From sequence record MW822008.1: a DNA stretch of 64,000 nucleotides; one strand, given 5' to 3'. The notes beneath the pieces are model-generated. The model was not told the DNA's origin. It saw nothing but the letters and a program-made list of their open reading frames with translations, and did not search any database. The translations under genes were made by a program, and so were the position numbers. Positions 4,397-60,319 of this stretch are shown here, piece by piece. The stretch's first letter is position 1. Each line of letters opens with the position of its first letter. The DNA is from Escherichia phage BF17.

Positions 4397-4660
4397 ATGA
4401 ATATTCAAGATAGATTACAATTACTGTACACACTTGAACAGGCTGCTTATGATCTTGTTCGAAAAATCTCAGATGAACTACCTAAAGGAACTAAAGTTCG
4501 TGTACGTGAGATGAATTATTTTTCTGGAGTAATTGAAGAACAAGTACTAACAGTGAATAAAGTAACATACTATGAATCTGAGTTGTCTATTCAGTGTGAA
4601 TCTGATGATGGATTAATATCATATTATGGAACTGATGTAGATATAGAGGTAATAAAATGA
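4397..4660 (+). CDS. small paralog-family protein
   Basis: ATG at 4397 after GGTGGA. Contains LPKGTKVRVREMNYFSGVIE, a variant of the family core. Confidence 0.6.
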   Translation: MNIQDRLQLLYTLEQAAYDLVRKISDELPKGTKVRVREMNYFSGVIEEQVLTVNKVTYYESELSIQCESDDGLISYYGTDVDIEVIK

Positions 4661-5799
4661 CCCTTTTGCAAATATATGAAGATTTAATGCACTTATGTAA
4701 TACAAACGATGCATTCTTTTATGTGGATCATAAAAGTCCTGCTGGTGGCACGTATCGTGTATTCAGTTATCGTCTAGCATCATACACTGATTTCATGCAA
4801 CCAAATGCGTTGGAAACCCGTGGCTCTATGTGGGAAATTGATGAAGAAGGTGACATGATACGTTGTGCAGCACGTACAATGAAAAAGTTCTTCAATGCTT
4901 ACGAGAATCCTGCTACAATGTTCCCTGCTAACACCACATGCGATGACATTGCGGTAGTGATGCCTAAGTTGGATGGCTCGATCATCAGTACTTATCGTGA
5001 TAATGATGGTGAGATTCGTTGTAAATCACATACTGCATTGTATTCTGACCATGCGATTAACAGCACTCGACTTATTAACGAGAACCAGAATTTGTATCAG
5101 TACATCGACGAAGCGGAACGTTTAGGTTACACAGTTAATATGGAGTATACAAGCCCAGAGTACCGAATTGTATTACCATATCAGGTAGAACAACTGTTTG
5201 TACTGAACGTTCGTCATCGTGTGAGTGGTGAGTTGCTTTGTGGTAAAGCACTACGTGATAAGTTTCCATGTCTTGCACAGTACAGTACTAATATGACTGG
5301 AAAAGATATTCATCACACTTTTCCGGTACGAAATACCTTCCGTGAAAGCGTGGAGGAAGTTCATAAAATGCTTGATATTGAGGGTTTTGTGTGCATCCTA
5401 AATAATGGGACAATGTGTAAAATAAAGACTGACTGGTACAGTTCATTACATCTTACAAAAGATAGTATTATTATTGATTCTCATTTATATGAAGCAGTAT
5501 TAAATGGTTCAAGTGATGATTTAAAACAATTGTTCAGTACTGATGAATATGCTATGCAAAAGATATTAAGAATGGAACAATTGGTATTTTCGTGCTATAA
5601 TGCATTACAAGATGAAGTAGAAAGCTTCGTCAAGGAACACAAGCACTTGGAGCGAAAGGAATTCGCAATGAAGGTTCAGGAGTGTTTAACTAATGAACTG
5701 AATCGTCAGGGCTTGGCCTTTGCAATGTATAACAATAAGAAAGTTGATTACAAAGAGACTCTTATAAAATACATGAAAATTGTACTAAAGGATTTTTAG
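4657..5799 (+). CDS. rnlA: RNA ligase 1 (T4 RnlA-like)
   Basis: N-terminus aligns with my recollection of T4 RnlA (YRVFSYRLASYTDF, ETRGSMWE, KKFFNAYENP). Also has the nucleotidyl-transferase motif I KLDGS and a later KIKTDWY motif. Confidence 0.88.
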   Translation: MTLLQIYEDLMHLCNTNDAFFYVDHKSPAGGTYRVFSYRLASYTDFMQPNALETRGSMWEIDEEGDMIRCAARTMKKFFNAYENPATMFPANTTCDDIAVVMPKLDGSIISTYRDNDGEIRCKSHTALYSDHAINSTRLINENQNLYQYIDEAERLGYTVNMEYTSPEYRIVLPYQVEQLFVLNVRHRVSGELLCGKALRDKFPCLAQYSTNMTGKDIHHTFPVRNTFRESVEEVHKMLDIEGFVCILNNGTMCKIKTDWYSSLHLTKDSIIIDSHLYEAVLNGSSDDLKQLFSTDEYAMQKILRMEQLVFSCYNALQDEVESFVKEHKHLERKEFAMKVQECLTNELNRQGLAFAMYNNKKVDYKETLIKYMKIVLKDF

Positions 5800-5829
5800 T
5801 ACTATCTAGCCTAAGCACAAGGAGAAGTG

Positions 5830-6084
5830 ATGGCTAAACCTAAGTATAAAAATGACGGTTCCCTTTCTCCGACTGAGTTCAGGAAAATACAAGAAGAAAT
5901 CGATGAATTACAGCACAAACGCTCAATGAAAGGTGTGAAGATAAGTAAGAAACGAATCGAGAATACCTTCGGATGTAGTAGTACTGAATACAAGAAGAAA
6001 AGGAAACCAAAAGGTGTTAAGCCGAGAATACATGATGTAACTCGCTATACATCGAAACGTGAAAATAAATTTGATCCACTATAA
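5830..6084 (+). CDS. small lysine-rich basic protein
   Basis: ATG at 5830 after AAGGAG. Highly basic composition. Confidence 0.6.
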   Translation: MAKPKYKNDGSLSPTEFRKIQEEIDELQHKRSMKGVKISKKRIENTFGCSSTEYKKKRKPKGVKPRIHDVTRYTSKRENKFDPL

Positions 6085-6093
6085 GGAGTTCAT

Positions 6094-6330
6094 ATGAAAG
6101 TTGAAGTTCAGCATAGTATTGTTCAGGATATGTCAGTAGTTAAATTTCTTTCTCTGAAAGATTACTTCAGATGTATCAAGTTCCTAGAAGAATCTCAATT
6201 ACAGTGGACCCCATTAAAGTACAGTTCATCCAATGATACTGCTAGTATTCGTTGTGATGAATCTGTACTTGTGAAAATCTCCAAGCGATTTGGAGTTGGG
6301 AAATATAATGATAAACAATGCACAAAGTAA
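6094..6330 (+). CDS. hypothetical small protein
   Basis: ORF track. AGGAG lies upstream. Confidence 0.6.
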   Translation: MKVEVQHSIVQDMSVVKFLSLKDYFRCIKFLEESQLQWTPLKYSSSNDTASIRCDESVLVKISKRFGVGKYNDKQCTK

Positions 6331-6619
6331 TTTACTATATATAAAGTCAGTAGAAGCTGAAATTAAAAATTCAGTACAAACTATCGTCGATGAAATGATT
6401 GACAAATACAAGAGCAATCTTATTGGGAAGAAAGTCAGATGTTGGGATTACACATTCAAACACTGGTACGATTCCGAGATTGTGAAAGTTGATGTGAATA
6501 CTGATAGTAATGGTCTAATTAATGGTATTGCGTATATTGGTGTTTTAATACGCAAGGGAACACCACAGGAATGGCTAACTTATCATAATATAGAGCATGT
6601 TAAATTTTTAGAGGATTAA
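6308..6619 (+). CDS. small paralog-family protein
   Basis: ATG at 6308. Contains motif KSNLIGKKVRCWDY. Confidence 0.6.
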   Translation: MINNAQSNLLYIKSVEAEIKNSVQTIVDEMIDKYKSNLIGKKVRCWDYTFKHWYDSEIVKVDVNTDSNGLINGIAYIGVLIRKGTPQEWLTYHNIEHVKFLED

Positions 6620-6622
6620 AGG

Positions 6623-7555
6623 ATGCCAACTATCACACTAACAGTTGGATTGCCTGGGTGTGGTAAAACTACATGGGCAGTGCAAGAGATTAAAAACGCC
6701 AAATCCAAGACTATCAACATCAACCGTGATGATATTCGTGAATCTATGGCTGGGTCACATGATGCTTACAAATTCAACGATGCTAATGAGCAGTACGTAA
6801 CTAATTTACAGTTCAGTGCAGCAAATTCAGCAGCAGAGAATGGTTGGAACATCATCATATCCGATACAAACCTTAAACAACATTTCCGTAATCTCTGGAA
6901 AGTATGGGCTAAAGATAATGGTTATGATTACAAAGAAAAGAACTTCTATGATGATTTTGTACCTAATGAAGACCGTGGTGCAGATGTTCATGAATTCTTT
7001 AAGATTAAAGAGTTCGTAAAACTTTGTAAGAAATATAACCTCCAGCGTGAGCGTTCAGTACAAGATGATATCATTGACACAATGGCAGATACGTACTATT
7101 ATAGTAAGGCATTACACATTGGTTACTATGGTAATTCACGCGAAGCTGCTATCATCGTTGATATCGATGGAACTCTTGCTCATAAATGGGGTCGTAATCC
7201 TTACGATGAAAGTACTGTTCTTCAGGATACACCTGATGAAGAAGTTATTTTGTCTATTATCGCTGAAGCAGTTTTTCATAAACGCAAGATTATCGTCATG
7301 AGTGGGCGTACTGAAGGGTGTCGTGCTGATACCGAACAGTGGCTTAAGAATTGGGGTGTTCCTTACGATGCATTGTTTATGCGAGATATCGATGATAAAC
7401 GTCCTGATGATGTTGTAAAATTCGACCTGTACATGAAAAATGTGGTTGATCATTACGATGTTAAAAAGGTATATGATGACCGCGATCAAGTTGTATTCAT
7501 GTGGCGTAAGCTACTTGGGTTGAAAGTTTTCCAAGTGGCTGAAGGAAATTTCTAA
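6623..7555 (+). CDS. pseT: polynucleotide 5'-kinase / 3'-phosphatase (T4 PseT-like)
   Basis: N-terminal P-loop GLPGCGKTT, then the HAD phosphatase motif DIDGTLA. Size matches PseT. Terminator follows at 7563. Confidence 0.88.
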   Translation: MPTITLTVGLPGCGKTTWAVQEIKNAKSKTININRDDIRESMAGSHDAYKFNDANEQYVTNLQFSAANSAAENGWNIIISDTNLKQHFRNLWKVWAKDNGYDYKEKNFYDDFVPNEDRGADVHEFFKIKEFVKLCKKYNLQRERSVQDDIIDTMADTYYYSKALHIGYYGNSREAAIIVDIDGTLAHKWGRNPYDESTVLQDTPDEEVILSIIAEAVFHKRKIIVMSGRTEGCRADTEQWLKNWGVPYDALFMRDIDDKRPDDVVKFDLYMKNVVDHYDVKKVYDDRDQVVFMWRKLLGLKVFQVAEGNF

Positions 7556-7562
7556 TACAAAA

Positions 7563-7590
7563 GGGATCATATATTGGTCCCTTTTTCTTT
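7563..7590 (+). terminator. intrinsic terminator after pseT
   Basis: GGGATCA-TATAT-TGGTCCC followed by TTTTTCTTTT. Confidence 0.7.
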
Positions 7591-7622: not shown

Positions 7623-7781
7623 ATGTTATTACAAAAAGACTACTTAGAAAATATAGAACGATACTATAGATTGTCTTTGTATGAAAATAAGCATAAAAAT
7701 TATAGTTTTGATAAACTACTAAATTCCAGTACTGATGATTATCTATTTTCATCAATGTTTTATGTGAGAGGTTTATTATAA
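7623..7781 (+). CDS. hypothetical small protein (52 aa, below the track cutoff)
   Basis: My own translation: MLLQKDYLENIERYYRLSLYENKHKNY... Its TAA stop overlaps the next ATG (TAATG). Confidence 0.4.
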   Translation: MLLQKDYLENIERYYRLSLYENKHKNYSFDKLLNSSTDDYLFSSMFYVRGLL

Positions 7782-8041
7782 TGGATAAATTTCACACAGA
7801 TATAACACAGATAGGTAATCTTATCAATAGTCTAATTACTGATTTAGAAGAAAAGTACTTAGGTCGAAATGTATACGTAGAAATGTATGAAACATATGGT
7901 GTTATTGATATGATTTATTACAGTGCATTGAAGTGTGAAATACGTTTAACAGTATGTTTGTTTGAAAAAAATACATTCAACAGAAGTACTGCAATTCGCC
8001 AAGTTGGAGTTGATGATATAGAATTATACGAGGAACAATGA
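7781..8041 (+). CDS. small paralog-family protein
   Basis: Contains motif EEKYLGRNVYVEMYE. Confidence 0.6.
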   Translation: MDKFHTDITQIGNLINSLITDLEEKYLGRNVYVEMYETYGVIDMIYYSALKCEIRLTVCLFEKNTFNRSTAIRQVGVDDIELYEEQ

Positions 8042-8292
8042 TGTTTGAGCAGGACTTAGAGATATTCAAAAGTCATATTGATTACTTGACTATATTAGAA
8101 AATGATTTAACTACAAAGTACAAAGGCATTCGTGTTCTGTGCTGGTATGATGATTGGGATTATAAACGTGAACTCACGATTGATCGAATTTATTTCAGTG
8201 ACGGTGTACTAAATGTACATGGTGTAAATGATTTTGGTCATTCATATACATATTCTAATAATGCTAAATTTAAAAGGATCTACAATGAATGA
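8038..8292 (+). CDS. small paralog-family protein
   Basis: ATGATG overlap with the upstream ORF. Contains motif TTKYKGIRVLCWYDD. Confidence 0.6.
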   Translation: MMFEQDLEIFKSHIDYLTILENDLTTKYKGIRVLCWYDDWDYKRELTIDRIYFSDGVLNVHGVNDFGHSYTYSNNAKFKRIYNE

Positions 8293-9570: not shown

Positions 9571-10201
9571 CAGTGCATATGTAATCGGTATTATTATTTC
9601 TGGTATGCTTGCATATAACTATAACCGAAGTGTTCTAGGTTATGTAGTACTTGGTACAGTACTAAGTCCAGTGATTGCCATTGGTCTTCTTGTTATGCTA
9701 GGTGAGAAAAATACAAGCTTCTTTATTACTAAAGAACTTGATAAAATCACTCCAGCACCAGAAACAGTTATTCCAGAAGTTAAAGAAGAAGTTAAAGAAG
9801 AAGTTAAAGAAGAAGTTAAAGAAGTTGAAGTTCAAATGCAAGTTAAAGTGTATAATACACTTGAAGAAACTGATCCTAAAGTTGTAGTGAATGTAGTTCC
9901 AGTCGTTGAAGATGTGAAACCAAAAGCTCCTAAAGTACAGAAAAATACTAAAACTGCAAAGAAAGCTCGTTACACTAAAGGTAAGAACAAAGGTAAATCT
10001 AAGGATGAACCACAACTAGGTGTTCATGACCATACTGCACAAATTGCAACGGCAGCGACCGCAGCAGCAATCGTAACATCACCAATCTACAACAATGATG
10101 ATTACAGTGATTATAGCCGTCACAGCAGTTCTTCCTCTGATTCTTGTTCCTATGATAGCTCTAGTTCTGATTCAAGTTCATCGTCTGGAAGTTGTGATTA
10201 A
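9548..10201 (+). CDS. membrane protein with an EVKE repeat and a Ser/Cys-rich tail
   Basis: Two N-terminal hydrophobic helices. Contains (EVKE)n and a lysine-rich stretch. The C-terminus is SSSSSDSCSYDSSSSDSSSSSGSCD. Confidence 0.65.
   Translation: MLTPIILSSAYVIGIIISGMLAYNYNRSVLGYVVLGTVLSPVIAIGLLVMLGEKNTSFFITKELDKITPAPETVIPEVKEEVKEEVKEEVKEVEVQMQVKVYNTLEETDPKVVVNVVPVVEDVKPKAPKVQKNTKTAKKARYTKGKNKGKSKDEPQLGVHDHTAQIATAATAAAIVTSPIYNNDDYSDYSRHSSSSSDSCSYDSSSSDSSSSSGSCD
9776..9823 (+). repeat. 4 x 12-bp tandem repeat GAAGTTAAAGAA (codes EVKE)
   Basis: Read directly from the sequence. In frame within ORF 9548..10201. Confidence 0.9.
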
Positions 10202-10530
10202 TGTCAATGAAACCACTAATTCAACATAATATTTTTTATAGGTCATTATTCAAAATTCAAGATGATTTTTATCAGACGTTGAGTAATGATCTTATAGGTA
10301 AAACTGTACGATATTCGGAACAATACATCAAACGTATGACAAGTGAGTATATTGACCCTGAATACGAATACGACATTGAACACATTAATCCCAATACTAG
10401 AATGAAAATCATTGAGATATTTAAGAATGGGAGAACTATAGGTGCTGAAATTGAGTACTTGAATTGTGATTGTTACATAGATACCGAGTTAAGTTTGGAT
10501 TATCTTGTTTTAGTGGATGATGAGGAATAA
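10201..10530 (+). CDS. small paralog-family protein
   Basis: Contains motif SNDLIGKTVRYSEQY. Confidence 0.6.
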   Translation: MSMKPLIQHNIFYRSLFKIQDDFYQTLSNDLIGKTVRYSEQYIKRMTSEYIDPEYEYDIEHINPNTRMKIIEIFKNGRTIGAEIEYLNCDCYIDTELSLDYLVLVDDEE

Positions 10531-10532
10531 TT

Positions 10533-10748
10533 ATGATAACATTTTTTGCAATATATGGTTTTGTAGCATTTGTTACATTTATAACCAACTTTCTAGTACT
10601 TAATTGGGGTTGTTTTAAAGATGAAATCATGATTATCATGAATCTCCAAACAGCAGCACTGATGGCTATTATTTGGCCTGTAACATTAGTATATATTTTT
10701 ATTTCACTTACCCAAGATATTATTAACAAATATAAGAGAAAGAAATAA
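10533..10748 (+). CDS. small membrane protein
   Basis: Two hydrophobic segments (FFAIYGFVAFVTFITNFLVL; AALMAIIWPVTLVYIFISL). Confidence 0.6.
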   Translation: MITFFAIYGFVAFVTFITNFLVLNWGCFKDEIMIIMNLQTAALMAIIWPVTLVYIFISLTQDIINKYKRKK

Positions 10749-10999
10749 TGTTCAACACTGACTTATCACATTTGCGATATCTTATGTCTTTGGCTGATGA
10801 TTTTATAAATGATCTGAAGCCAAAATATATTGGTCAAGAAGTACGATTAATAAACTCCAGAGGGTATGGAAAGTATATTATTACTGATATGTATATTAGT
10901 GGTGGTGAATGGCGTTTTAAAATTAATACTTATCTTAAAGATGGTTCTTTTGCTGGAACACAAGTTACTAAACACACTAATATTATATGGTTGGAGTAA
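10748..10999 (+). CDS. small paralog-family protein
   Basis: Contains motif KPKYIGQEVRLINSRGYGKYIITDMY. Confidence 0.6.
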   Translation: MFNTDLSHLRYLMSLADDFINDLKPKYIGQEVRLINSRGYGKYIITDMYISGGEWRFKINTYLKDGSFAGTQVTKHTNIIWLE

Positions 11000-11750: not shown

Positions 11751-12020
11751 ATGCATGATGTAGTTAAAAAATATTTGAATGATAGATATATTATGAAAAA
11801 ATCTATTAATTCTATCCTAAAAGACCATGCAAATCAAATACGTGAGATTCTATCAAATAAACTTATTGGTTGTTCAGTTGAGTTCAACTACAAAAAGAAT
11901 GTCGTGAAGGTTGGAGTTATTAAACGTGTAGTTGCTGTTTATGACCAAGATGTATATGTTGAAATAGAATATGATGGTAAATTATCACAATTAAGTACTG
12001 AAGATTTAACATTTTTATAA
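11751..12020 (+). CDS. small paralog-family protein
   Basis: Contains motif SNKLIGCSVEFNYKKNVVKVGVIK. Confidence 0.6.
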   Translation: MHDVVKKYLNDRYIMKKSINSILKDHANQIREILSNKLIGCSVEFNYKKNVVKVGVIKRVVAVYDQDVYVEIEYDGKLSQLSTEDLTFL

Positions 12021-12030
12021 GGAAATAGAA

Positions 12031-12258
12031 ATGAAAGTAATTCAAGTTATGGTAGAAAAATACCAAACTGAAGATGGTCGTATTTTTGATTCAGCTAAAC
12101 AAGCTGAACACCATGAACGTATTATTTCTGGTGCACGTAAAGTATGTCCTACATGTAATGGAACACAACAAGTACCGTCAGAAGATTACCGCAGCTTTTA
12201 TGCTTGTCCACACTGTGATGGGAAAGGCTACGTAGAAAAACAAGAGGTATGGAAATGA
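12031..12258 (+). CDS. small DnaJ-type zinc-finger protein
   Basis: Contains CPTCNGTQ and CPHCDGKG, both CxxCxGxG-like repeats. Confidence 0.6.
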   Translation: MKVIQVMVEKYQTEDGRIFDSAKQAEHHERIISGARKVCPTCNGTQQVPSEDYRSFYACPHCDGKGYVEKQEVWK

Positions 12259-12668
12259 AATTGTATTGCTTAACTAATATGTACTGCCAAGGTGTCCAAG
12301 CTGGTATTCAAGCATTCCATGCTGGTGTTAAACTAATTAAAGAATATGAAGGTACTGCTTTCAGTACTATTATTGATGAATGGTACTATGAACACGAAAC
12401 TATTGTAGTACTAAATGCTGGTGGACATGATAAGTTAAATTCTTATTATAACAACCTTAGCAAACAGGGAAAAGTTCCGTTTGCCAAATTCAATGAAGCT
12501 GGATTGAATGATGCTATTACCTGTGTAGCAGTACTGTGTACGTCTGAAATGATTGAAGACATGGCTGTTATGCGTATGAATCTTCCTGCTGGTGATCAAC
12601 TAATGCAAGTAAAATATGGTGCATTGTTTGACACATTAAAAGCAATCAGCACAATGAGGACAATTTGA
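12249..12668 (+). CDS. peptidyl-tRNA hydrolase 2 (PTH2)-like fold protein
   Basis: Pattern recalls PTH2: QGVQAGIQAFHAG...W...ETIVVLNAGG...DAITCVAVL. This is similarity by eye only. Confidence 0.45.
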   Translation: MEMKLYCLTNMYCQGVQAGIQAFHAGVKLIKEYEGTAFSTIIDEWYYEHETIVVLNAGGHDKLNSYYNNLSKQGKVPFAKFNEAGLNDAITCVAVLCTSEMIEDMAVMRMNLPAGDQLMQVKYGALFDTLKAISTMRTI

Positions 12669-13878: not shown

Positions 13879-15297
13879 ATGAGCATTTTAGCAATTCTTG
13901 AAAGCATTAAAAATACTAGCAGTACTCTGGGCAAAAAGGCTATTCTTGAACAAAATAAAGATAATGTAACTTTACAAAAAGTACTGAAATATACTCTAGA
14001 CCCTTCTATCGTTAGTGGCTATAAGAAGCTCCCTGCCGCTGATGACGTATATCAACATATGACGTTAGATGAAGCAATTGATAAGCTAGAATGCATTTAC
14101 AAGCGTGATGTGACAGGAAATGCGGGGCGTGATTTCATTGCTTCAGTACTGGGTTCTGTATCTGAAGATGATCAGGAAGTTCTACGTAGAATGCTCACTA
14201 AGAACCTTGATTGTGGTATTCAGGAGAAGAACTGCAATGATGTGTTTGGTAAAGGATTCATCAAAGACGAACCATATATGCGTTGTTCTTTGATTGACAA
14301 AAAGACTGCAAAGAACATCAACTTCAAAGATTATGGTTACGCTATATCAGAAGTGAAAATGGATGGTCAGTACTTAAACCACGTTGTCATTAATGGTTCA
14401 TTAACTTCTACATCCCGTAATGGTAAACTATACGACTTCCTGGGTTGTCGTGATGGTGAGATGGCAGGTCTTGCTCACATCATCCAAAGTAAAGATGAAC
14501 GTTTTAGTAGTGGTGTAGTCTTTATGGGGGAAGGTGTAGTACTGGACAATGATGGAGAAACCATTCTCCCACGCACTACTGGCAACGGTATAATTCAGAA
14601 AGCTGGTAAAGATAGCATCAGTCAGAATGAAGCAATGCGTACTGTATTCGTTCTATGGGATGTTGTTCCATATGATGCATTTTGTGAAGGTGTATGGGAT
14701 GTAAAACGTAAAGAACGTCGCGAGATCTTAGTAGATGCAATTAACGAACTCAATAGTGATTTTGTTCGTATGGTTGGATTCCGTAAAGTTCTAAACATCA
14801 AAGAAGCATTTGAGTACAATAGTGAACTAATGAACGAAGGTGAAGAGGGTTCAGTACTGAAATGTGAAGATGGTATCTGGAAATCTCATACTTCACCTAA
14901 GCAGTTGAAAATGAAATTGAAAATGCAACTGGACTTACGTATTGTTGGTTTCAATGAAGGTGAAGGTAAACGTAAAGGAAGCCTAGGTTCTTTACAACTG
15001 GAAAGTGCTTGTGGTTCATTGAAAGTTAATGTGGGTACTGGTATCAAAGAGAAAGATGCTGAATGGACATTTAAAACCATTTGGGAAAGAATGCAAGAAC
15101 TTATTGGTAAAGTGGTTACAGTTGAGTGTAATGACATTGTATTCGACAAGCGTACTGGTGAGCCATCACTGTTCTTACCAGTGTTTATTGAATTTAGATT
15201 TGACAAAAACACTTGTGATGATTATACTCGTATCTTAGAAATTCGTGAGAGTGCTGTTGAAGTGTTCTCAAACAGTATTATTGACGCATTAGGTTAA
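13879..15297 (+). CDS. ATP-dependent DNA ligase
   Basis: Adenylation motif I SEVKMDGQY. Later motifs EGSVLK and KLKM, and the size, fit the T4 gp30 class. Confidence 0.85.
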   Translation: MSILAILESIKNTSSTLGKKAILEQNKDNVTLQKVLKYTLDPSIVSGYKKLPAADDVYQHMTLDEAIDKLECIYKRDVTGNAGRDFIASVLGSVSEDDQEVLRRMLTKNLDCGIQEKNCNDVFGKGFIKDEPYMRCSLIDKKTAKNINFKDYGYAISEVKMDGQYLNHVVINGSLTSTSRNGKLYDFLGCRDGEMAGLAHIIQSKDERFSSGVVFMGEGVVLDNDGETILPRTTGNGIIQKAGKDSISQNEAMRTVFVLWDVVPYDAFCEGVWDVKRKERREILVDAINELNSDFVRMVGFRKVLNIKEAFEYNSELMNEGEEGSVLKCEDGIWKSHTSPKQLKMKLKMQLDLRIVGFNEGEGKRKGSLGSLQLESACGSLKVNVGTGIKEKDAEWTFKTIWERMQELIGKVVTVECNDIVFDKRTGEPSLFLPVFIEFRFDKNTCDDYTRILEIRESAVEVFSNSIIDALG

Positions 15298-24701: not shown

Positions 24702-26141
24702 ATGAAAAAATATACAATTGACACAAACGTACTACTATCTGACCCGAATGCATCTATTGCTTTTGATGGTGCTGCAATCATTCTACCATTTACAGTACTG
24801 GAAGAATTGGATTCAATTAAGAGTCGTAATGTAGATGTTTCACGCGATGCTCGTGTTGCTATTCGTAACATTGAAGCAATTATTGCAGATGCATCACATG
24901 ATGAGATTAGTAGTACTGGTGTTAATATTGCTGATGTTCATACCAATATGAATCCTGATAGCAAATTGTTTGTTATTACAAACGAAGAAGCTGAAGCACT
25001 AATTCGTACTAAAGGTTCAGAAGAGAAAGTTCAAACCCTTCTCAAAAGCACAGTACCTGATGATAAAATCATTCTGGTAGCTTTAGCAACAGAATCAGTA
25101 CTGGTAACTCGTGATATCAACATGCGTATCAAAGCACTAAGTTATGGTGTCGAGGTACAAGATTATCGCCATGATATTGTTATTGGTGATAGTGATTTGA
25201 TTCACATTGGTCAACACCATTTGGAAATTAATTTTTGGGAAGTATATAGCAACTTATCCAATACTAATATTCAATCCGAACAAGTTGGTCGTCGTTTGTA
25301 TCATTACATTTCTAAAAGCTTGATTGAACATTTGCTTCCACAAAATCTATGCATCGGTGATTATCTATATGATGATGCAGACGTATTATTTGTGTACGAA
25401 GGTCAATCAGCAATTGAGGAAGATGATGGAACACTAACACCAGAAGATATTTTGGTATTCCAAGATATTGGACAATCAGTAGCTTTACGTGCTAAAGTAT
25501 GGGATATTAAAGCAAAGAATATCCAACAAGCACTCGCCATCAACAGTATTCTCGATCCTGATGTACATCTAACAGTACTGCTAGGTTCTGCTGGTACTGG
25601 TAAAACACTAATTACGATTGCTACTGCATTAGAATTAGTACTGGAAAAACGTAAATACGACCGAATCATCTTCTCTAAAACTCAAGACTCACAGTTTGAA
25701 GATATTGGTTTCTTGCCAGGTTCAGAAGCAGAAAAAGTGATTCCATTCTGTGGAGCCGCAATTGACGCGTTAGAGTTTCTTCATAAAGATGATGCTAACC
25801 CACAAGGTAGTATTGAAGAGATTATGAAACGTAATGTTATTCAATTTAAAGCACTAAACTTTGTACGTGGACGTTCATTCACCAACACTATTCTAGTAGT
25901 TGATGAATTCCAAAACATTACACCTGCACAAGCCAAAACAATCTTGACACGAGCAGGATTAAACTGTAAAGTAGTAATTATGGGTAACTTGAGTCAGATT
26001 GACAGTAAGTTTATTAGTCCTGTTAACAGTGGTTTGACATATGTAACTGAGAAGTTTAAAGATTGGGCAGGTTGTCGTGTCATCGAACTTGAAGGTGTTG
26101 TTCGCTCACCACTAGCTGAATTTGCTGAAGAAAATATGTAA
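24702..26141 (+). CDS. phoH: PIN-domain + PhoH-like ATPase (PhoH2/YlaK type)
   Basis: N-terminal PIN domain (YTIDTNVLL...LEELD). C-terminal P-loop LLGSAGTGKTL and Walker B VVDEFQN. Confidence 0.85.
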   Translation: MKKYTIDTNVLLSDPNASIAFDGAAIILPFTVLEELDSIKSRNVDVSRDARVAIRNIEAIIADASHDEISSTGVNIADVHTNMNPDSKLFVITNEEAEALIRTKGSEEKVQTLLKSTVPDDKIILVALATESVLVTRDINMRIKALSYGVEVQDYRHDIVIGDSDLIHIGQHHLEINFWEVYSNLSNTNIQSEQVGRRLYHYISKSLIEHLLPQNLCIGDYLYDDADVLFVYEGQSAIEEDDGTLTPEDILVFQDIGQSVALRAKVWDIKAKNIQQALAINSILDPDVHLTVLLGSAGTGKTLITIATALELVLEKRKYDRIIFSKTQDSQFEDIGFLPGSEAEKVIPFCGAAIDALEFLHKDDANPQGSIEEIMKRNVIQFKALNFVRGRSFTNTILVVDEFQNITPAQAKTILTRAGLNCKVVIMGNLSQIDSKFISPVNSGLTYVTEKFKDWAGCRVIELEGVVRSPLAEFAEENM

Positions 26142-35881: not shown

Positions 35882-38578
35882 ATGTCAAAGAAAATATATG
35901 GTGGCTTAGATGTCACACATAATGTGACAGTTAATGGTAAAAGAACAATTCAAGGAATAAATGAACAAGTTTTTGATTCCAACGGTAACTTGGAATTAGA
36001 TACTTATTCCAGAGATGAAGTACTAGATATAGTAAGTATGATGCCAATCTCCCATTATGGTTCACAAAACTATCTACCTGCGGGTGTTTCTGGGGATTTC
36101 AATGGTGCATCAGAAAACCAGTCACAACGTAGAAATAAAATTTTATTAGAAAACGATGGTACACTAGTACTTTTACGTAGTGGGACAAACGGTAGTGTTG
36201 AGGGATTATTTTATTCATATTTGGCTAACGCATTATCAGTTGATGACATGAGCCGTACAATTAACACTAGTCGTCAATACAAGCCTGGGTTTTTTGGTTC
36301 AAATAGAGTTGCGATTGGTTTATACAATACTGATCCAAATATTTTACTCGGTAGATATATTGATACTTCTAACAGTACTAATGGTTTGTTCATATCAATT
36401 ACCAATGGTACATTAGATGATAAATTGCATACTGGTTTTTTCGTTAACCAAGCAGATATATCACCTGAAGGTGGTATTGAATATGCTATGATGGCAGAAG
36501 ATGGTTCTATATATGTTTTTAACGTACTTAATGAAAATAACCAACTACAATTAGTTGTTGTAAAAGTTGTTTATAATATAAGCAATGGTACTTATACTGC
36601 AACTCGAATTACTGGATGGACTACTAAAACATTTTATAACACGACATATTCTGCACAAAATAATATGGTTATTACTAATCAGGTAACATCAACAAATATT
36701 GCTGATAAACCTTATGTGTATGTTCCACAAAATCTACGTGGTATTGGGATTTACATGACATCAATTGATTTATATGTTGCACAGCAGCCAGGAACGCAGA
36801 ATTTCCGCTTTAGAATGAACGGGGACGCTTGGTTTACAATGGCAACATATAATACACGTCCACAGCATAGTTACAGTTTTGTGTTCAATATGAGTACTAA
36901 ACAATGTACATTAGATGCGGGTAACGATATTGGTTCATATCAAGCACCATTAGTTATAACTAATACTGGTTCGGCATTAGTTCCTACTGGTAACGTTTTA
37001 AATAACGATCCATTGTATAACCATGCAAATGCAAGAAACATTTATAGTTCATATTTTTATTTGAATTCTGGTGAAGCTTTTTGTACTACATGTCCAAACT
37101 TAGCAGAACCATTACTTATGCAAAAAGCTAAGTTTCCTATTCAAATAGTTTATAGTATGCTGAATGTCCGTGCTGTACTTTCTACTGACTTCAAAGGTGG
37201 TATAGTTCGCCCGTCTTTTGGTTCAGCGGTTGGTTCATTTATTAATGGTGTAGAATTACTACCAGATAACAGTACTAAACAATATTCACGTGCATCAGGT
37301 AGTGGTGGATTTAGACCATCATATGCAGTTCATAAAAGTACTCCTAATTTTACATTTAAATCATTATCTTTAGGAACAATACAAGGTTATGAACCTACAG
37401 TTGAACGTGCTAATGTTGATGATAATGCAAATAATAGAATTTTTATTAGTAGTATTTCTGGGTCAACTGTCACAACCAATGGTGGTATTTTTATGGTTGG
37501 GCAACGTTATTCACAATCATTATCCTATGATAAAAACTTAAATGGCACAGGAATTATAAGCGTTACACAATCAGTACTGGACAATTTTAGAAATACTGAA
37601 TATGCCAAAGTTCTAAGTGATTGGAATTTATCAGCACAAGCATACCGTGATATGACACTATTTGTTCCACAACAAACAGACATTCCAGCTTTTGTTATGT
37701 TGAGTACAATTACTAATGATTATAGAAACTATATTAGAATTGCTGAAGTTAATGTCAATACTAGAGTTGGTAATATTACATCTATTACATTTAAGCGTTT
37801 AGTACTTGAGAATACGTATGGTGATAACTTTACACCAACTGGGAATGGTTCGATTGCATCTTCTTCTGTTGGTTTGACCATATATGATGGTGGTTCATTC
37901 TACTTCATTGGTGGTTCTGACCCATTATCACATCCAACAATAGGTAATACTGCAACTCATCAATTTAGAGCATATGTAACTAAATCAACTGCACAATTTA
38001 CAAGTTTTATAATTACTGGATCTCATGCCAGTTATGAACAAGGAAGTCAACCAGCAGCATTACCTGGTATTGGTTTTGGAATTTTTGAACCAATGGATTA
38101 CTCAAATAAAATGACATTCAAAAAATATGGAACAACGATTGCAGACTATAATAACTGGACTGCACAAGGTAGCCCAATTAACGTAGTATCCCAGGACGTT
38201 GCTCAAGGGTTTATTGTATATTTTACAGAGGAAACACCAGTTATTCTTTCAGGTAAGTCATTTTCACTACCAGTTTCAAATATTGATTTGAGAACTATTA
38301 AGTCTAATCCAGCAAATACAACATTTTATGTATATGTTAAATTGGAACAAGGATTGGCAAACTATTACATAACTACTGATGTTATTTCTGAAACAGGGAC
38401 AACTGCATATAATATTTTTTGGATAGGTACAATTCAAACTAATGCAATTCAAATCGAAACAATTAATATACAAAAACGTTCCCGTTTAGATATATTTGGT
38501 GCTTCACTTGAATCAGCAGGTTCATCGTTCCCAGTTAGCTACGGTCTACCATCACAAACAGGAACCATAAACTGGTAA
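35882..38578 (+). CDS. tail fibre protein (long paralog 1)
   Basis: 898 aa, rich in Gly/Ser/Thr/Asn. Shares N-terminal, sub-terminal and C-terminal modules with 38590 and 39194. Confidence 0.7.
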   Translation: MSKKIYGGLDVTHNVTVNGKRTIQGINEQVFDSNGNLELDTYSRDEVLDIVSMMPISHYGSQNYLPAGVSGDFNGASENQSQRRNKILLENDGTLVLLRSGTNGSVEGLFYSYLANALSVDDMSRTINTSRQYKPGFFGSNRVAIGLYNTDPNILLGRYIDTSNSTNGLFISITNGTLDDKLHTGFFVNQADISPEGGIEYAMMAEDGSIYVFNVLNENNQLQLVVVKVVYNISNGTYTATRITGWTTKTFYNTTYSAQNNMVITNQVTSTNIADKPYVYVPQNLRGIGIYMTSIDLYVAQQPGTQNFRFRMNGDAWFTMATYNTRPQHSYSFVFNMSTKQCTLDAGNDIGSYQAPLVITNTGSALVPTGNVLNNDPLYNHANARNIYSSYFYLNSGEAFCTTCPNLAEPLLMQKAKFPIQIVYSMLNVRAVLSTDFKGGIVRPSFGSAVGSFINGVELLPDNSTKQYSRASGSGGFRPSYAVHKSTPNFTFKSLSLGTIQGYEPTVERANVDDNANNRIFISSISGSTVTTNGGIFMVGQRYSQSLSYDKNLNGTGIISVTQSVLDNFRNTEYAKVLSDWNLSAQAYRDMTLFVPQQTDIPAFVMLSTITNDYRNYIRIAEVNVNTRVGNITSITFKRLVLENTYGDNFTPTGNGSIASSSVGLTIYDGGSFYFIGGSDPLSHPTIGNTATHQFRAYVTKSTAQFTSFIITGSHASYEQGSQPAALPGIGFGIFEPMDYSNKMTFKKYGTTIADYNNWTAQGSPINVVSQDVAQGFIVYFTEETPVILSGKSFSLPVSNIDLRTIKSNPANTTFYVYVKLEQGLANYYITTDVISETGTTAYNIFWIGTIQTNAIQIETINIQKRSRLDIFGASLESAGSSFPVSYGLPSQTGTINW

Positions 38579-38589
38579 AGGATTACATA

Positions 38590-39177
38590 ATGGCATATAA
38601 AATAAGAGCAGACCTTAAGGCAATGCAACAAGTTACAGTTCAGGGTAAAAGTACTGGTCTTGGTGTATTAGGTAATAATATGACTTATTACCCAACAAAT
38701 TCAAATGGGGAATGTACATTCCCCTCTATTACCAAAGATGAAGTTAACTTTATTGTCAATGGATTACCACTTACACAATACGGAGAATTGTATGATGACG
38801 CTAGTCTAAATATTACTTCATCAGGCTATAGTCTTACATTTAATAGACAGATACCATCATTTATTGGTGGTTATCTTTATAAATTTCCAGCAGTTTCTAT
38901 TTTTGCTTCAACTGTTTCATCTGGAACACAAACACAATACGTATATGCAACGTTAGTTCTCGGTGAACCAATTTATAAAATATCACCAACACAAATACAA
39001 GAATCTGAAATTATAATGTTTATTGGAACACTGACCGTTGGTACAAGTGGTATTACAAATATAAACATTAATAAAGTATCCAGATTTAGTACATATAGAC
39101 CTAGTGTTACACAAAAAGGTTCTTCATTCCCAGTCAGTACTGGAAAACCATCAGAAACTGGTACAATTGGTTGGTAA
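38590..39177 (+). CDS. short tail-fibre paralog (195 aa 'mini-fibre')
   Basis: N-terminus (ITKDEVNFIVNGLPLTQYGE) and C-terminus (SRFSTYRPSVTQKGSSFPVSTGKPSETGTIGW) match both long fibres. Confidence 0.6.
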   Translation: MAYKIRADLKAMQQVTVQGKSTGLGVLGNNMTYYPTNSNGECTFPSITKDEVNFIVNGLPLTQYGELYDDASLNITSSGYSLTFNRQIPSFIGGYLYKFPAVSIFASTVSSGTQTQYVYATLVLGEPIYKISPTQIQESEIIMFIGTLTVGTSGITNININKVSRFSTYRPSVTQKGSSFPVSTGKPSETGTIGW

Positions 39178-39193
39178 ATTAAGGAAAAGAAAG

Positions 39194-43593: not shown

Positions 43594-43995
43594 ATGACTA
43601 CAGTTGATGATATCTATAGCACTATACGCAATATGAGTACAGATAGAAAAGTATTTGGCGATAAAGAAAAATCTAAGTGTTATGGTATTGATTCTTTTGA
43701 TATAATTTCTTATGAGTACAATACAAGTGGAAATAGTTCACTGAATATCGTCTGTCCTCGTGACCCAGAAAATAATTTTATGTATGTTGAAATTAATAAT
43801 GATGGAATGTTTTTTACAAAAGTTTTCAAAGGTGGAATTAATTACGAACCTATTGAATGTATGAATGAAGAAACTTTCTTTCAAGAAGATACAATTATCA
43901 ATTTAGGTTTTAGTTTTGATGATTATAAAACATTAGAACATGACTTTAATCGTTATTATAATGGTTTCTTAAAGGAGTTAACAATTTATCTATGA
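43594..43995 (+). CDS. hypothetical protein
   Basis: ORF track. Confidence 0.6.
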   Translation: MTTVDDIYSTIRNMSTDRKVFGDKEKSKCYGIDSFDIISYEYNTSGNSSLNIVCPRDPENNFMYVEINNDGMFFTKVFKGGINYEPIECMNEETFFQEDTIINLGFSFDDYKTLEHDFNRYYNGFLKELTIYL

Positions 43996-45224
43996 ATAAC
44001 CAATATATTGAACAAACAATAGTGAAACACTTGGCTGGGTCACAAGCCTACGGAACCAGTACACCGGAAAGTGATACTGATTATCGTGGTATTTTTCTTG
44101 CTAATAAAGAATTTATTCTTACACCCTTCTATAAGGTCAAAGAGGTAGCTGACAAAAGCGAAGAAGATACTAAATTCTATGAGTTGAATCAGTATTTAAA
44201 ATTATACACTGAAGCTAACCCTAATATTCTTGAATCACTTTGGGTTGAACCTGAACACATTGTGGAAAGTACTGAAATTTATGACTATCTTCGTTCATTT
44301 AACCAAAAACTTCTTAGTTCCAAGATTGCATTTTCATACACTGGATATGCATATAATCAGATTAAGCGTATGACAAATCATCACGGTTGGATGGATAAAG
44401 AGCGTATTGCTGAAAAACGATTAAATGAGATTTTAGAAGAACACCCTGTCGATGAGGTTCTTGCGTGGATGTATGATTCATTCCCACAGTATCTTGTTGA
44501 ACGTTTAGATACATCCAACTTACATCCATTTAATGCTAAAAAGATTGATTTTGAAAAATATATGCGTGATACATCATTGCAGTTAGTTTCGAAAAATCCA
44601 TTAAAGCAATATCATTTCGTAAGATTAGTGCATAACTACACTACTGAAAAAATTCTTGATCGTGATTTCAATTTATTGAATTTTAATAATGGTTATGAAC
44701 TAATTCATTACGGAGAAAACATTTTTGCGATTGTTAAGAATCCTAATGAAAGCACTATTAACCATGATGGTTCATTGCGTTATTTTTCAAAAGAACGTAG
44801 TACTGAAGAGTTGAAAACCAAACCAGAACTAATTGTCAAATTTAACGAAAAAGAATATCAGGAAAATAGTGAGAATAGGAAAAGTTATCATAAATGGAAA
44901 GAAAATCGTAATGCCAAACGTGCTATTTTAGAATCACAACACGGATACGATTGTAAACATGCTATGCACACAATCCGACTTTTGAATAGTGCAGAAGAAG
45001 CGTTACAAAGTGGAATTATTCAAGTTAAACGACCAGATGCACAAATGTTGATGGATATTCGTAATGGTAAATGGAAGTATGAAGAAGTATTAGAATATTT
45101 CGATGATAAAGTACAATACATTCGTGATGTTCTATATAAGAAATCAGTACTTCCTAAAAAACCAAACATCAAGTTAGCATCAAAAATTATCATTGATATT
45201 AGAGAAATGCAATGGTATAAGTAA
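43992..45224 (+). CDS. Pol-beta-superfamily nucleotidyltransferase (RlaP-like)
   Basis: N-terminal LAGSQAYGTSTPESDTDYRGIF is the GS...D.D nucleotidyltransferase motif typical of the PF10127-type family. Confidence 0.65.
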   Translation: MNNQYIEQTIVKHLAGSQAYGTSTPESDTDYRGIFLANKEFILTPFYKVKEVADKSEEDTKFYELNQYLKLYTEANPNILESLWVEPEHIVESTEIYDYLRSFNQKLLSSKIAFSYTGYAYNQIKRMTNHHGWMDKERIAEKRLNEILEEHPVDEVLAWMYDSFPQYLVERLDTSNLHPFNAKKIDFEKYMRDTSLQLVSKNPLKQYHFVRLVHNYTTEKILDRDFNLLNFNNGYELIHYGENIFAIVKNPNESTINHDGSLRYFSKERSTEELKTKPELIVKFNEKEYQENSENRKSYHKWKENRNAKRAILESQHGYDCKHAMHTIRLLNSAEEALQSGIIQVKRPDAQMLMDIRNGKWKYEEVLEYFDDKVQYIRDVLYKKSVLPKKPNIKLASKIIIDIREMQWYK

Positions 45225-58466: not shown

Positions 58467-58877
58467 ATGATTGAAATGGAAGGAACTCTGGTGTATGATC
58501 CAGATCGTGGCACTATGAAAAAGAAGAAGGACTTCTGGTTAGTACTACAACTTCCATTGCAGTTGGTTCGATACTACCAGTACTTCATCAGAACTAACTT
58601 ACATATTGATATTAAAGACCCACAATGGGGAGCACATGTCAGTATCGTTCGTGGTGAAGTGCCACCAAATCCAGAGTACTGGAAAAAGTACGATGGAATG
58701 AAAGTTAAGATTAAGTTCGATCCTTTCATCGAAGAAGTAAAAGACAATAAGAAACCTGGGTCATTCTTTATCATAGAGTTTGAAGATGATTTCATTGCAC
58801 AAATTCGTGATGAACTTGGTTTAGCATCTAAATATTTCAAATATCACATCACCATTGGTAGAACATACTACGATTAG
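58467..58877 (+). CDS. 2H-phosphoesterase superfamily protein (LigT/cyclic-nucleotide phosphodiesterase-like)
   Basis: Two H-x-[ST]-x motifs with appropriate spacing: GAHVSIVRG and KYHITIGRT. Confidence 0.6.
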   Translation: MIEMEGTLVYDPDRGTMKKKKDFWLVLQLPLQLVRYYQYFIRTNLHIDIKDPQWGAHVSIVRGEVPPNPEYWKKYDGMKVKIKFDPFIEEVKDNKKPGSFFIIEFEDDFIAQIRDELGLASKYFKYHITIGRTYYD

Positions 58878-58929: not shown

Positions 58930-59044
58930 CTTAAATGTTCCAAAGAACAACTGAGTACTGTAGAAAGTCCAATGAGGCTTTTGCAAATGGCCTCTTTGCC
59001 CTCTTTGTGATTGCTCATTGTTAACAACCAACAAAGGAGGCGTT

Positions 59045-59971
59045 TTGAAAAAAGCGAAAAAAGCACTGAAAACTAAAATTGCCATAGGCGTGTTAGTTTC
59101 ATCAGCCCTATTCGCTGCGATTGGATTTTATGGTTTTTCTCAAAGTGATCGTGCATCATCATTAGACGAAAGTCAGGTGCATAATTTAAAACCACAAGTT
59201 ACGCAAATTCAAAAGCAGGAACTACCACAGGTATCAGTACCAAAAGCAGTTCCAAGCAGCGAGAAACATTATACGGTTCAACCTGGAGATAGTTATTATT
59301 CTATTGCACAGAAATTTAAACCTAAAAATGTACAGATTGAAGATTATGTCATTTTGTTGAAGAACATCAACTTAAATGCAACTCTTCATACTTCTCAGGG
59401 TATCTTTATCCCAACAAAAGAGGATTTGAAGAACGTATTGTTACCAGATGTGACTGTACTGTTTGATTATAAAGATCCAGAAATTGTCAATCACATCAAA
59501 GAAGCTGAAGGTTCTATTGAATTTCAGTCCAAGAACAAACGACGTTTACTTGGTGGGAAAGTTGGAGTTCCTTTCCACAATTCTAAATTTCATCCCTATA
59601 AGGACATGAAAGGTAATTATACAATTGGTTATGGGCATTATTTGGGTAAGAAAGATTCTGATGCAATGAAGTACAGAAACGGGATTACCAAAGCACAGGC
59701 CAACAAACTTTTAATGCAAGATATGAAAAGGACTTACGAGGACTTTACACTATTGATGCAGAAGAAAGATGCAGTTAATCTGACAAAAGAACAGCAGCGT
59801 ATCCTGTTTGAAATGTCATACACAATGGGCGTTGATAAGTTGGCAACATTTAACAAACTATGGAAAAGTGTTAAAATGGATAACCCTAAGAAATTCAAGA
59901 AAGAAATCATGAATTCCTTGTGGTATCGCCAAGTTACAAACAGAGCGGATTTGTTGTTAAGCTCACTCTAA
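59045..59971 (+). CDS. endolysin with N-terminal signal-anchor, LysM and GH24 (T4-lysozyme-like) domains
   Basis: TTG at 59045 is 4 nt after AAGGAGG. TM helix IAIGVLVSSALFAAIGFYGF. LysM HYTVQPGDSYYSIAQKF. Catalytic KEAEG and YKDMKGNYTIGYGH. Confidence 0.8.
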   Translation: MKKAKKALKTKIAIGVLVSSALFAAIGFYGFSQSDRASSLDESQVHNLKPQVTQIQKQELPQVSVPKAVPSSEKHYTVQPGDSYYSIAQKFKPKNVQIEDYVILLKNINLNATLHTSQGIFIPTKEDLKNVLLPDVTVLFDYKDPEIVNHIKEAEGSIEFQSKNKRRLLGGKVGVPFHNSKFHPYKDMKGNYTIGYGHYLGKKDSDAMKYRNGITKAQANKLLMQDMKRTYEDFTLLMQKKDAVNLTKEQQRILFEMSYTMGVDKLATFNKLWKSVKMDNPKKFKKEIMNSLWYRQVTNRADLLLSSL

Positions 59972-59986
59972 AAAGGTAGGTAAATT

Positions 59987-60319
59987 ATGCTAAATCTAGT
60001 TATCCAAGGTAATGTTGATATTACTCCAGCAATCAATGACGCAATTCATGCTGAAGCAAATGCACTAACGAAGTTTAGTGATTCTTCAGTACTGCATATT
60101 GGTGTTCATGTGAAGAAAGAGCATAAGAATCAATATTTCGTAACTTTAACATCAGGCGGTAAGAGTGTTACAGCCGATGATGCAGATTTATACAAAGCAA
60201 TTGGTGATTCATTTGAAAAAATGGAAACTGTCTTAGGTAAAGACAAAAGCATCAAATTGTATCGCCGTAACCACCCCGAACATCCAGTTCAAGAAGACTT
60301 GACTGAAGACGAAGAGTAA
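59987..60319 (+). CDS. hpf: ribosome hibernation promoting factor / RaiA family
   Basis: MLNLVIQGNVDITPAINDAIHAE...LYKAIGDSFEKME aligns with E. coli HPF (MQLNITGNNVEITEALREFV...MYAAIDGLIDKL). Confidence 0.8.
   Translation: MLNLVIQGNVDITPAINDAIHAEANALTKFSDSSVLHIGVHVKKEHKNQYFVTLTSGGKSVTADDADLYKAIGDSFEKMETVLGKDKSIKLYRRNHPEHPVQEDLTEDEE

Follow-up and report, generated by a model that had tools for sequence, protein, structure and literature searches.

Why does a large coliphage carry an RNA ligase and a polynucleotide kinase/phosphatase close together, and what are the small genes that lie between them? This question is raised by positions 4657 to 7555 of a 64,000-nucleotide (nt) stretch of Escherichia phage BF17 (record MW822008.1), the whole of which is referred to here as the window. 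The genes of a T4-type RNA ligase 1 (rnlA) and of a T4-type polynucleotide 5'-kinase/3'-phosphatase (pseT) flank three small open reading frames (ORFs), which we call ORF-A, ORF-B, and ORF-C. A sequence-only reading of the window had listed all five, which the ORF list confirms at those coordinates and on the + strand, and had taken the two enzymes for a T4-type pair that repairs tRNA in response to host immunity. Homology and the literature support that interpretation, and we consider it probable that the rnlA-pseT cassette is a heal-and-seal system of the T4 kind that acts on cut tRNAs.

The region is 99.6% identical to Escherichia phage SP27, 99.4% identical to PBECO4, and 98-99% identical to JP4, phAPEC6, UB, and others. 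As judged from the sequence, the source is an Asteriusvirus (PBECO4/SP27-like) jumbo coliphage, a genus with genomes of ~350 kb. The same ORFs have already been named in Asteriusvirus records (PBECO4 gp129/gp125, G17_00487/00482, phAPEC6, and 121Q genes 438-443), and in this region the phages of this genus differ from the window only at the junction between ORF-B and pseT. A role in countering Prr has already been put forward for such a phage in the phAPEC6 paper (PMC7247149). Since the genes are annotated in near-identical phages and have been treated in three papers, whose passages on near-identical or related phages agree with tRNA repair (PMC7247149, PMC3622015, PMC7824862), this reading is not new: the tRNA-repair pair and its counter-defence interpretation are already known for this genus. 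The modest new point is a conserved rnlA/ORF-A/ORF-B/pseT cassette in RaK2-like jumbo phages.

Identity and active sites of RnlA and PseT

The rnlA gene (4657..5799, + strand) encodes a protein of 380 amino acids (aa) with an adenylyltransferase domain and an Rnl1-specific C-terminal domain. Both score over their Pfam cut-offs (RNA_lig_T4_1, 58.8 bits; T4_Rnl1_C, PF20819, 62.4 bits with a cut-off of 27), and the second spans residues 268-379. This Rnl1-specific domain is all-helical and gives the ligase its specificity for tRNA, that is, for the anticodon loop. RnlA also passes the NCBIfam equivalog TIGR02308 (292.6 bits, cut-off 242.25), matches PHROG 562 (E 3e-109), and finds the solved T4 Rnl1 (PDB 2c5u) at E 1.5e-56. 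Aligned with the T4 gene product, it is 39% identical to T4 Rnl1.

The active site of the ligase is largely that of T4. Motif I of RnlA, K104-L-D-G107, aligns to T4 K99-E-D-G102 (KxDG, with the lysine as nucleophile), and the T4 residues R54, K75, F77, K99, D101, G102, E159, E227, G228, K240, and K242 are all kept. The list of residues essential in T4 Rnl1 reportedly goes back to Wang, Ho and Shuman in 2003. Ten of the 11 catalytic positions checked are identical between RnlA and T4. The essential role of R54 and K75 in the T4 enzyme is confirmed in PMC6379707. RnlA is predicted to carry out ATP-dependent sealing of 3'-OH/5'-PO4 breaks in the anticodon loop of tRNA.

The pseT gene (6623..7555, + strand) encodes a protein of 310 aa with P-loop kinase and HAD domains (Pfam HAD_PNKP, 149.6 bits; AAA_33, 50.5 bits). 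Its match to the solved T4 Pnkp (PDB 1ltq) has an E value of 2.7e-40, and the alignment with the T4 genes gives 39% identity. The kinase displays the P-loop G9-LPGCGKT16 (GxxGxGK[ST]) and the counterparts of T4 D35 and R38, namely D36 and R39; T4 K15 is kept and T4 S16 is replaced by Thr. The HAD motif reads D180-I-D182-G-T184 (DxDxT), and the phosphatase set D180, D182, R191, R229, D262, K266, D285, and D286 accounts for all eight of the T4 residues checked (D165, D167, R176, R213, D254, K258, D277, and D278). Compared with T4 Pnkp, PseT has ~19 extra aa inserted in the kinase domain (residues ~108-130); the insertion is specific to the clade, occurs throughout it, and is longer in Xanthomonas phage XaC1. 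PseT would be expected to be a homotetramer with kinase, 3'-phosphatase, and 2',3'-cyclic phosphodiesterase activities. The names that had been given to the two enzymes hold on their Pfam, NCBIfam (RnlA), and PDB matches, with catalytic residues nearly all intact.

By homology to T4, we postulate a pathway in which a host anticodon nuclease such as PrrC would cut the anticodon loop of a tRNA and leave a 2',3'-cyclic phosphate and a 5'-OH. The HAD domain of PseT, with Asp180 as the nucleophile, would strip the cyclic or 3'-phosphate, while its P-loop domain, through Lys15, would phosphorylate the 5'-OH. RnlA, adenylylated on Lys104, would then move AMP to the 5'-phosphate and join the ends, with its C-terminal domain steering the ligase to tRNA. 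Support for tRNA repair comes from the family assignments over curated cut-offs and from the strong matches to the solved T4 enzymes. Enzyme identity, conserved catalytic residues, and gene order can be read from the sequence itself; that the enzymes are active, act on tRNA, and serve counter-defence is inferred. The idea that rnlA and pseT are inactivated relics was rejected, because their catalytic residues are kept across deeply divergent lineages.

Several observations weigh against this interpretation. T4 Rnl1 K119, which we take to be essential, corresponds to His125 in RnlA. The histidine is common to the window and the related phages GAP32, RaK2, and 7t3, and XaC1 has a lysine; that the histidine is kept across divergent lineages points to a selected clade variant and not to decay. 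In PseT, Gln141 aligns to T4 Pnkp R126, the true counterpart of which is ambiguous, and Arg142, one residue further along the lid loop, is invariant across the clade. Since the T4 ligase (gp63) has a second role, in promoting the attachment of tail fibres, RnlA may owe its retention to something other than repair. In E. coli, nucleases of the PrrC type are rare. A promoter scan of the region returned 36 sites, when 39.7 were expected by chance from shuffled sequence, and was uninformative. Finally, the literature yielded no experiments on phages of the RaK2-like clade, including on a host-dependent requirement for the pair.

Organization of the cassette

The rnlA stop and the pseT start are 823 nt apart, in agreement with the ~0.8 kb that had been estimated. 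The three small ORFs lie in this interval with spacings, in cassette order, of 30 nt, 9 nt, a 23-nt overlap, and 3 nt, and GGAG Shine-Dalgarno-like sequences are found upstream of ORF-A, ORF-B, and pseT. A terminator-like hairpin (7559..7585, + strand) with an 11-bp stem followed by a T-run begins 4 nt past the pseT stop, and its counterpart in G17 is annotated as a putative terminator. No terminator-like sites were detected on the + strand between 3911 and 7559, and the preceding strong one is at 2783-2802. The hairpin at 7559-7585 is likely the end of the transcription unit that holds the cassette. With the promoter scan at chance level, co-transcription is argued from gene geometry and the terminator: rnlA, ORF-A, ORF-B, ORF-C, pseT, and the terminator probably form one co-oriented, co-transcribed cassette. 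The healing and sealing enzymes are encoded together, in one orientation and in the gene order of T4.

Conserved small proteins between the repair genes

ORF-A (5830..6084, + strand; 84 aa, or 85 aa from an alternative GTG start at 5827; phrog_15306) is the basic protein that had been remarked on from its composition, with a pI of 10.1 and 29% Lys plus Arg. Its AlphaFold2 (AF2) model contains a long helix (residues 14-45) and a short helix (51-57), with a pLDDT of 79.8 and a pTM of 0.47. ORF-A is without a Pfam family (weak scattered matches only) and without a Foldseek match. A helix-turn-helix fold, considered because of the stretch 'KRIxNTFGxSSTxYKK', was rejected, as the AF2 model shows the one long and one short helix instead. 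The ORF-A family comprises 64 clusters, all within the RaK2-like clade.

ORF-B (6094..6330, + strand, 78 aa) is the small ORF that had been listed at 6094. It represents a clade-restricted orphan family and is a small alpha/beta domain (beta-beta-alpha-beta-beta-alpha). The family comprises 30 clusters, whose local BLASTP identities to the query are all 64% or higher; identities are 56-68% globally and 60-73% in local tblastn matches. A remote search against 1.84 billion representatives retrieved only three true relatives, and five further matches are probably spurious, being multi-stretch matches inside long proteins.

The tblastn range of ORF-A and ORF-B covers RaK2-like jumbo phages, including Asteriusvirus, GAP32, RaK2/K64-1, Serratia phage BF, the Yersinia fHe-Yen9 phages, the Erwinia pEa_SNUABM phages, CBB, Salmonella phages 7t3/Munch, and Xanthomonas phage XaC1. 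We opened 11 genomic contexts, namely those of the window, PBECO4, G17, Salmonella phage SD-2_S15, fEgEco12, GAP32, RaK2, XaC1, 7t3, and two metagenomic lineages. All 11 displayed rnlA, ORF-A, ORF-B, and pseT in synteny, with ORF-A and ORF-B always between the enzymes. Identities to the window for rnlA/ORF-A/ORF-B/pseT are 57/59/68/58% in GAP32, 64/39/66/65% in RaK2, 49/50/56/46% in XaC1, and 59/54/65/55% in 7t3. ORF-B is at least as conserved as both enzymes, and ORF-A is about as conserved as they are except in RaK2, where it is short and divergent (the 39% identity extends over 57 aa).

As a conservation control, all window ORFs from 2.4 to 9.6 kb were compared with six distant loci. Only rnlA, ORF-A, ORF-B, and pseT were conserved (43-84% identity, with a partial match of 32% for RaK2 ORF-A), and the flanking small ORFs had no match or just 23-36% identity. 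Hence, these four genes make up a conservation island within a region of fast turnover.

One explanation for the island is that ORF-A and ORF-B serve Rnl1-Pnkp repair as dedicated accessory subunits or regulators peculiar to this clade, and that they might recruit cleaved tRNA, bridge Pnkp and Rnl1, or block a repair-defying nuclease such as RloC. In that case rnlA-A-B-pseT would be the functional unit, in place of a pair of enzymes. We regard this four-component module as possible, if rather doubtful. It fits with the retention of just these four genes in the six distant loci, and with an identity for ORF-B that exceeds those of both rnlA and pseT in GAP32, RaK2, XaC1, and 7t3. Both families are found in this clade only and sit between rnlA and pseT in each context examined, but the T4 genes in the same place are unrelated to RNA repair, so that position alone proves little. 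In favor of the module, ORF-B runs 13-44 nt into pseT in GAP32, XaC1, 7t3, and SD-2_S15, and ORF-A is strongly basic. Against it, one to three unrelated small ORFs are tolerated between ORF-B and pseT elsewhere, so that ORF-B need not be tightly coupled to pseT, and the RaK2 copy of ORF-A is short and divergent. Should ORF-A and ORF-B turn out to work with the repair enzymes, they would be the first such accessory factors for Rnl1-Pnkp repair in phages, and they could account for the way in which these phages withstand nucleases against which plain heal-and-seal repair fails. On the T4-type tRNA repair that we favor, the cassette has ORF-A and ORF-B as its conserved passengers or partners.

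A positional counterpart in T4, PseT.1, was considered for both proteins and rejected (hhalign probability 0.1% for each). The main-text passages of PMC7824862 and PMC3622015 on RNA repair do not mention ORF-A or ORF-B. ORF-A and ORF-B flank a third conserved small ORF, ORF-X (~74 aa), in GAP32, XaC1, 7t3, and a metagenomic lineage (L004 2764-2988, L006 2770-2994, L007 2764-2991, and L010 3768-3983 in our locus set). Three of the four copies are 25-43% identical to one another, and that of XaC1 has no significant pairwise match. Neither the window nor RaK2 has ORF-X, and it is likewise missing in metagenomic lineage L012, the closest relative outside Asteriusvirus.

A variable junction upstream of pseT

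ORF-C (6308..6619, + strand; 103 aa, or 109 aa from an alternative TTG start at 6290) displayed a different pattern, since it is distributed in Asteriusvirus only. The junction between ORF-B and pseT holds ORF-C in the window, PBECO4, SP27, and phAPEC6. In 121Q/G17, ORF-C is replaced by two different ORFs, and one of these shares 34% identity with it. Three small ORFs are found there in RaK2 and two in the metagenomic lineage L012, and in Salmonella phage SD-2_S15 there is none, ORF-B overlapping pseT by 44 nt. The junction coordinates are 6290-6623 in the window, 3509-4084 in L001, 3210-3977 in L005, 2312-2355 in L008, and 4215-4719 in L012. An N-terminal helix, an 'F/Y-I/T-G-K-K-V' motif, and, near the C terminus, a 'DDLxF' motif are common to all of the inserted ORFs. 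With zero to three copies of a small-protein family, the junction is a hot spot of indels, and ORF-C itself is, on this comparison of sequences, dispensable for the cassette. In the fEgEco12 record alone, ORF-C is labelled 'transcriptional regulator' (g185, L013 1801-2112); it is hypothetical elsewhere, and we found no basis for the label.

The sequence-only reading had placed ORF-C in an expanded family of small proteins within the window. Pairwise and iterative searches miss such a family. Neither BLASTP nor phmmer found paralogues of ORF-C within the window; weak matches at E<=0.01 numbered eight with real, six with reversed, and zero with shuffled sequences, and at E<=1 they numbered 134, 104, and 94. 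An iterative hidden Markov model (HMM) of the ORF-C family proved unreliable, since it drew in a decoy of reversed sequence, and was set aside. We then built a family profile from the seven junction inserts of other phages only and ran it in a single, non-iterative search against 60 small window ORFs and 360 decoys. Eight window ORFs outscored all 360 decoys, the highest being 6290-6619 with 22.4 bits, compared with 9.7 bits for the top decoy. The other seven are 239-523, 2495-2776, 7781-8041, 8038-8292, 10201-10530, 10748-10999, and 11751-12020. With decoys as the control, the expanded family is real at the level of the profile, and this part of the earlier proposal stands: the eight ORFs belong, by profile similarity, to a diffuse family of fast-evolving small proteins. 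At the junction upstream of pseT, members of this family offer a clean natural case of repeated gain and loss.

Other RNA- and translation-related genes of the window

Is the pair part of a wider RNA maintenance apparatus? A list of such genes elsewhere in the window had accompanied the tRNA-repair proposal, and its entries fared unequally. The CCA-adding class II tRNA nucleotidyltransferase (61960..63075, + strand, 371 aa) is clear, with PolyA_pol at 66.2 bits, PolyA_pol_RNAbd at 37.5 bits, and phrog_2244 at E 2.9e-115. Over residues 1-204 it resembles the head and neck of E. coli-type Cca (278.8 bits), and since the protein falls below the cut-off of the full-length equivalog (451), its C-terminal part differs. 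Equally clear is the RlaP-family Pol-beta nucleotidyltransferase (43992..45224, + strand, 410 aa; PF10127, 59.2 bits with a cut-off of 23; phrog_388).

Two further candidates pass Pfam but fail NCBIfam. The PTH2-like peptidyl-tRNA hydrolase candidate (12249..12668, + strand, 139 aa) scores 25.2 bits against Pfam PTH2 (cut-off 23) and 20.5 bits against NCBIfam Pth2, far under the cut-off of 126; it matches phrog_3668 ('hydrolase'). The HPF/YfiA-like ribosome hibernation factor (59987..60319, + strand, 110 aa) reaches 41 bits for Ribosomal_S30AE (cut-off 23.7) and 32.2 bits for NCBIfam TIGR00741, under its cut-off of 40.9. The 2H phosphoesterase candidate (58467..58877, + strand, 136 aa) remains below the Pfam cut-off (2H-SAK, 23.5 bits versus 27); only its C-terminal half matches 2H-SAK, and it carries the HxS/T motifs H57-V-S and H127-I-T. 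Absent from the earlier list was a PIN-PhoH protein (24702..26141, + strand, 479 aa; PhoH 150.1 bits, PIN_4 72 bits), a candidate phage-encoded RNase/helicase. A Nudix hydrolase (63182-63595, 45.5 bits) lies ~100 nt downstream of the CCA-adding enzyme. The repertoire had been called unusually broad, which is true relative to small phages but typical of the RaK2-like jumbo clade.

These genes allow another explanation, in which the pair, the CCA-adding enzyme, RlaP, and 2H mainly maintain RNA during a long jumbo-phage infection and are no answer to an immune nuclease. They would process phage or host tRNAs, or mend what nucleases of the phage itself, such as PIN-PhoH, have damaged. We consider this housekeeping role improbable. 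The PIN-PhoH RNase/helicase-type protein and the Nudix protein encoded in the window would suit it, and so would the spread of the RNA genes, which are scattered over 58 kb, unlinked to the rnlA/pseT pair, and do not form one defence-response island. RlaP lies 38 kb from rnlA, no RNA-repair domains and no second RNA ligase were found among its neighbours, and no second RNA-repair cluster was found around the RlaP, 2H, or CCA genes, with only the Nudix protein past the CCA gene. The RaK2 authors suggested, in their remarks on the CCA enzyme, that it may mature phage tRNAs (PMC3622015), but no tRNA genes were found in the 64-kb window. The retention of the Rnl1-specific C-terminal domain, with its anticodon-loop specificity, also weighs against upkeep of RNA in general. 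The sole experimentally established role of Rnl1-Pnkp is the reversal of PrrC cleavage in T4, as cited in passages of PMC6379707 and PMC7824862.

The weakest alternative is that RnlA is kept mainly for non-enzymatic, T4-gp63-like fibre attachment and PseT for general 3'-phosphatase/5'-kinase end work, with tRNA repair incidental; the PHROG and GenBank family name ('RNA ligase and tail fiber protein attachment catalyst') and the elaborate fibre arrays of these phages (introduction of PMC7824862) lend it some color, but it is very improbable, given that a non-enzymatic role has no need of the ten of 11 ligase catalytic positions kept over deep divergence and that rnlA and pseT, stably linked in T4 and throughout the RaK2-like clade, would seem to act jointly.

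Some further features of the window were recorded. The product of 59018-59971 (317 aa), encoded between the 2H candidate and the HPF-like gene, contains a LysM fragment and a phage lysozyme domain. Downstream of the PTH2-like gene come, in this order, the gene of a 400-aa phrog_14061 protein and that of an ATP-dependent DNA ligase (13879-15297). ORFs 35882-38578 and 39104-41923 encode paralogous proteins of 898 and 939 aa (28% identity over 945 columns, E 1.5e-62), and 38590-39177 (195 aa), situated between them, matches the C-terminal parts of both with 36-43% identity. Adjacent or close paralogue pairs with 30-43% identity over part of their length are 41991-42557/42564-43085, 52981-53628/54364-54951, and 61002-61415/61402-61824; the members of these pairs that were checked had no Pfam match. 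Nearly all long ORFs of the window are on the + strand, its GC content is 30-38%, and its GC skew is positive in every 2-kb bin, with the cumulative skew rising monotonically.

Comparison with known systems

The repertoire of the window corresponds closely to what has been described for jumbo phages. The RaK2 paper of 2013, in its passages on RNA repair, named the CCA-adding enzyme, the polynucleotide kinase, and the RNA ligase as RNA repair proteins and also noted Pth2 (PMC3622015). Iyer, Anantharaman, Krishnan, Burroughs and Aravind (2021) devoted section 3.4.9 to jumbo-phage RNA repair, listing there Rnl1/Rnl2/RtcB, PNK-HAD, 2H, RlaP, the CCA-adding enzyme, PTH2, and PIN-PhoH and reading them as counter-measures of group 2/3 jumbo phages to attack on tRNA and translation (PMC7824862). 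From that list, as it appears in the section, the window has Rnl1, PNK-HAD, RlaP, the CCA-adding enzyme, and PIN-PhoH, together with the 2H and PTH2-like candidates. A term search for 'hibernation' in the text of PMC7824862 gave no hit, so the HPF-like protein seems to be undiscussed there.

Closest in layout is T4 itself, where the order rnlA-alc-pseT.3-pseT.2-pseT.1-pseT has the same gene order and direction as the window. The two pairs share both enzyme families, their domain architecture, and nearly all catalytic residues; the window enzymes differ in the His at Rnl1 K119, the ~19-aa insertion in Pnkp, and a lid-loop Arg that is probably shifted by one. Separation by small ORFs, to which the sequence-only reading had drawn attention, is real but not special, as T4 has the same arrangement with a gap of 1.43 kb. 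The T4 spacer genes (alc, the spanin genes pseT.3/pseT.2, and pseT.1) are unrelated to ORF-A, ORF-B, and ORF-C, and because they include a transcription inhibitor and two spanin genes, a place between the enzymes implies no repair function.

A second likeness is to the bacterial Pnkp1-Rnl-Hen1 complex (PMC4411300), which is likewise a heal-and-seal system and whose Pnkp1 (PDB 4xrp) is the second-best solved relative of PseT (E 1.2e-31). This complex is a precedent for extra partners of kinase-phosphatase/ligase repair. Unlike it, the cassette of the window has no Hen1 methyltransferase, its ligase is of the Rnl1 type, and ORF-A and ORF-B resemble none of the components of the bacterial complex.

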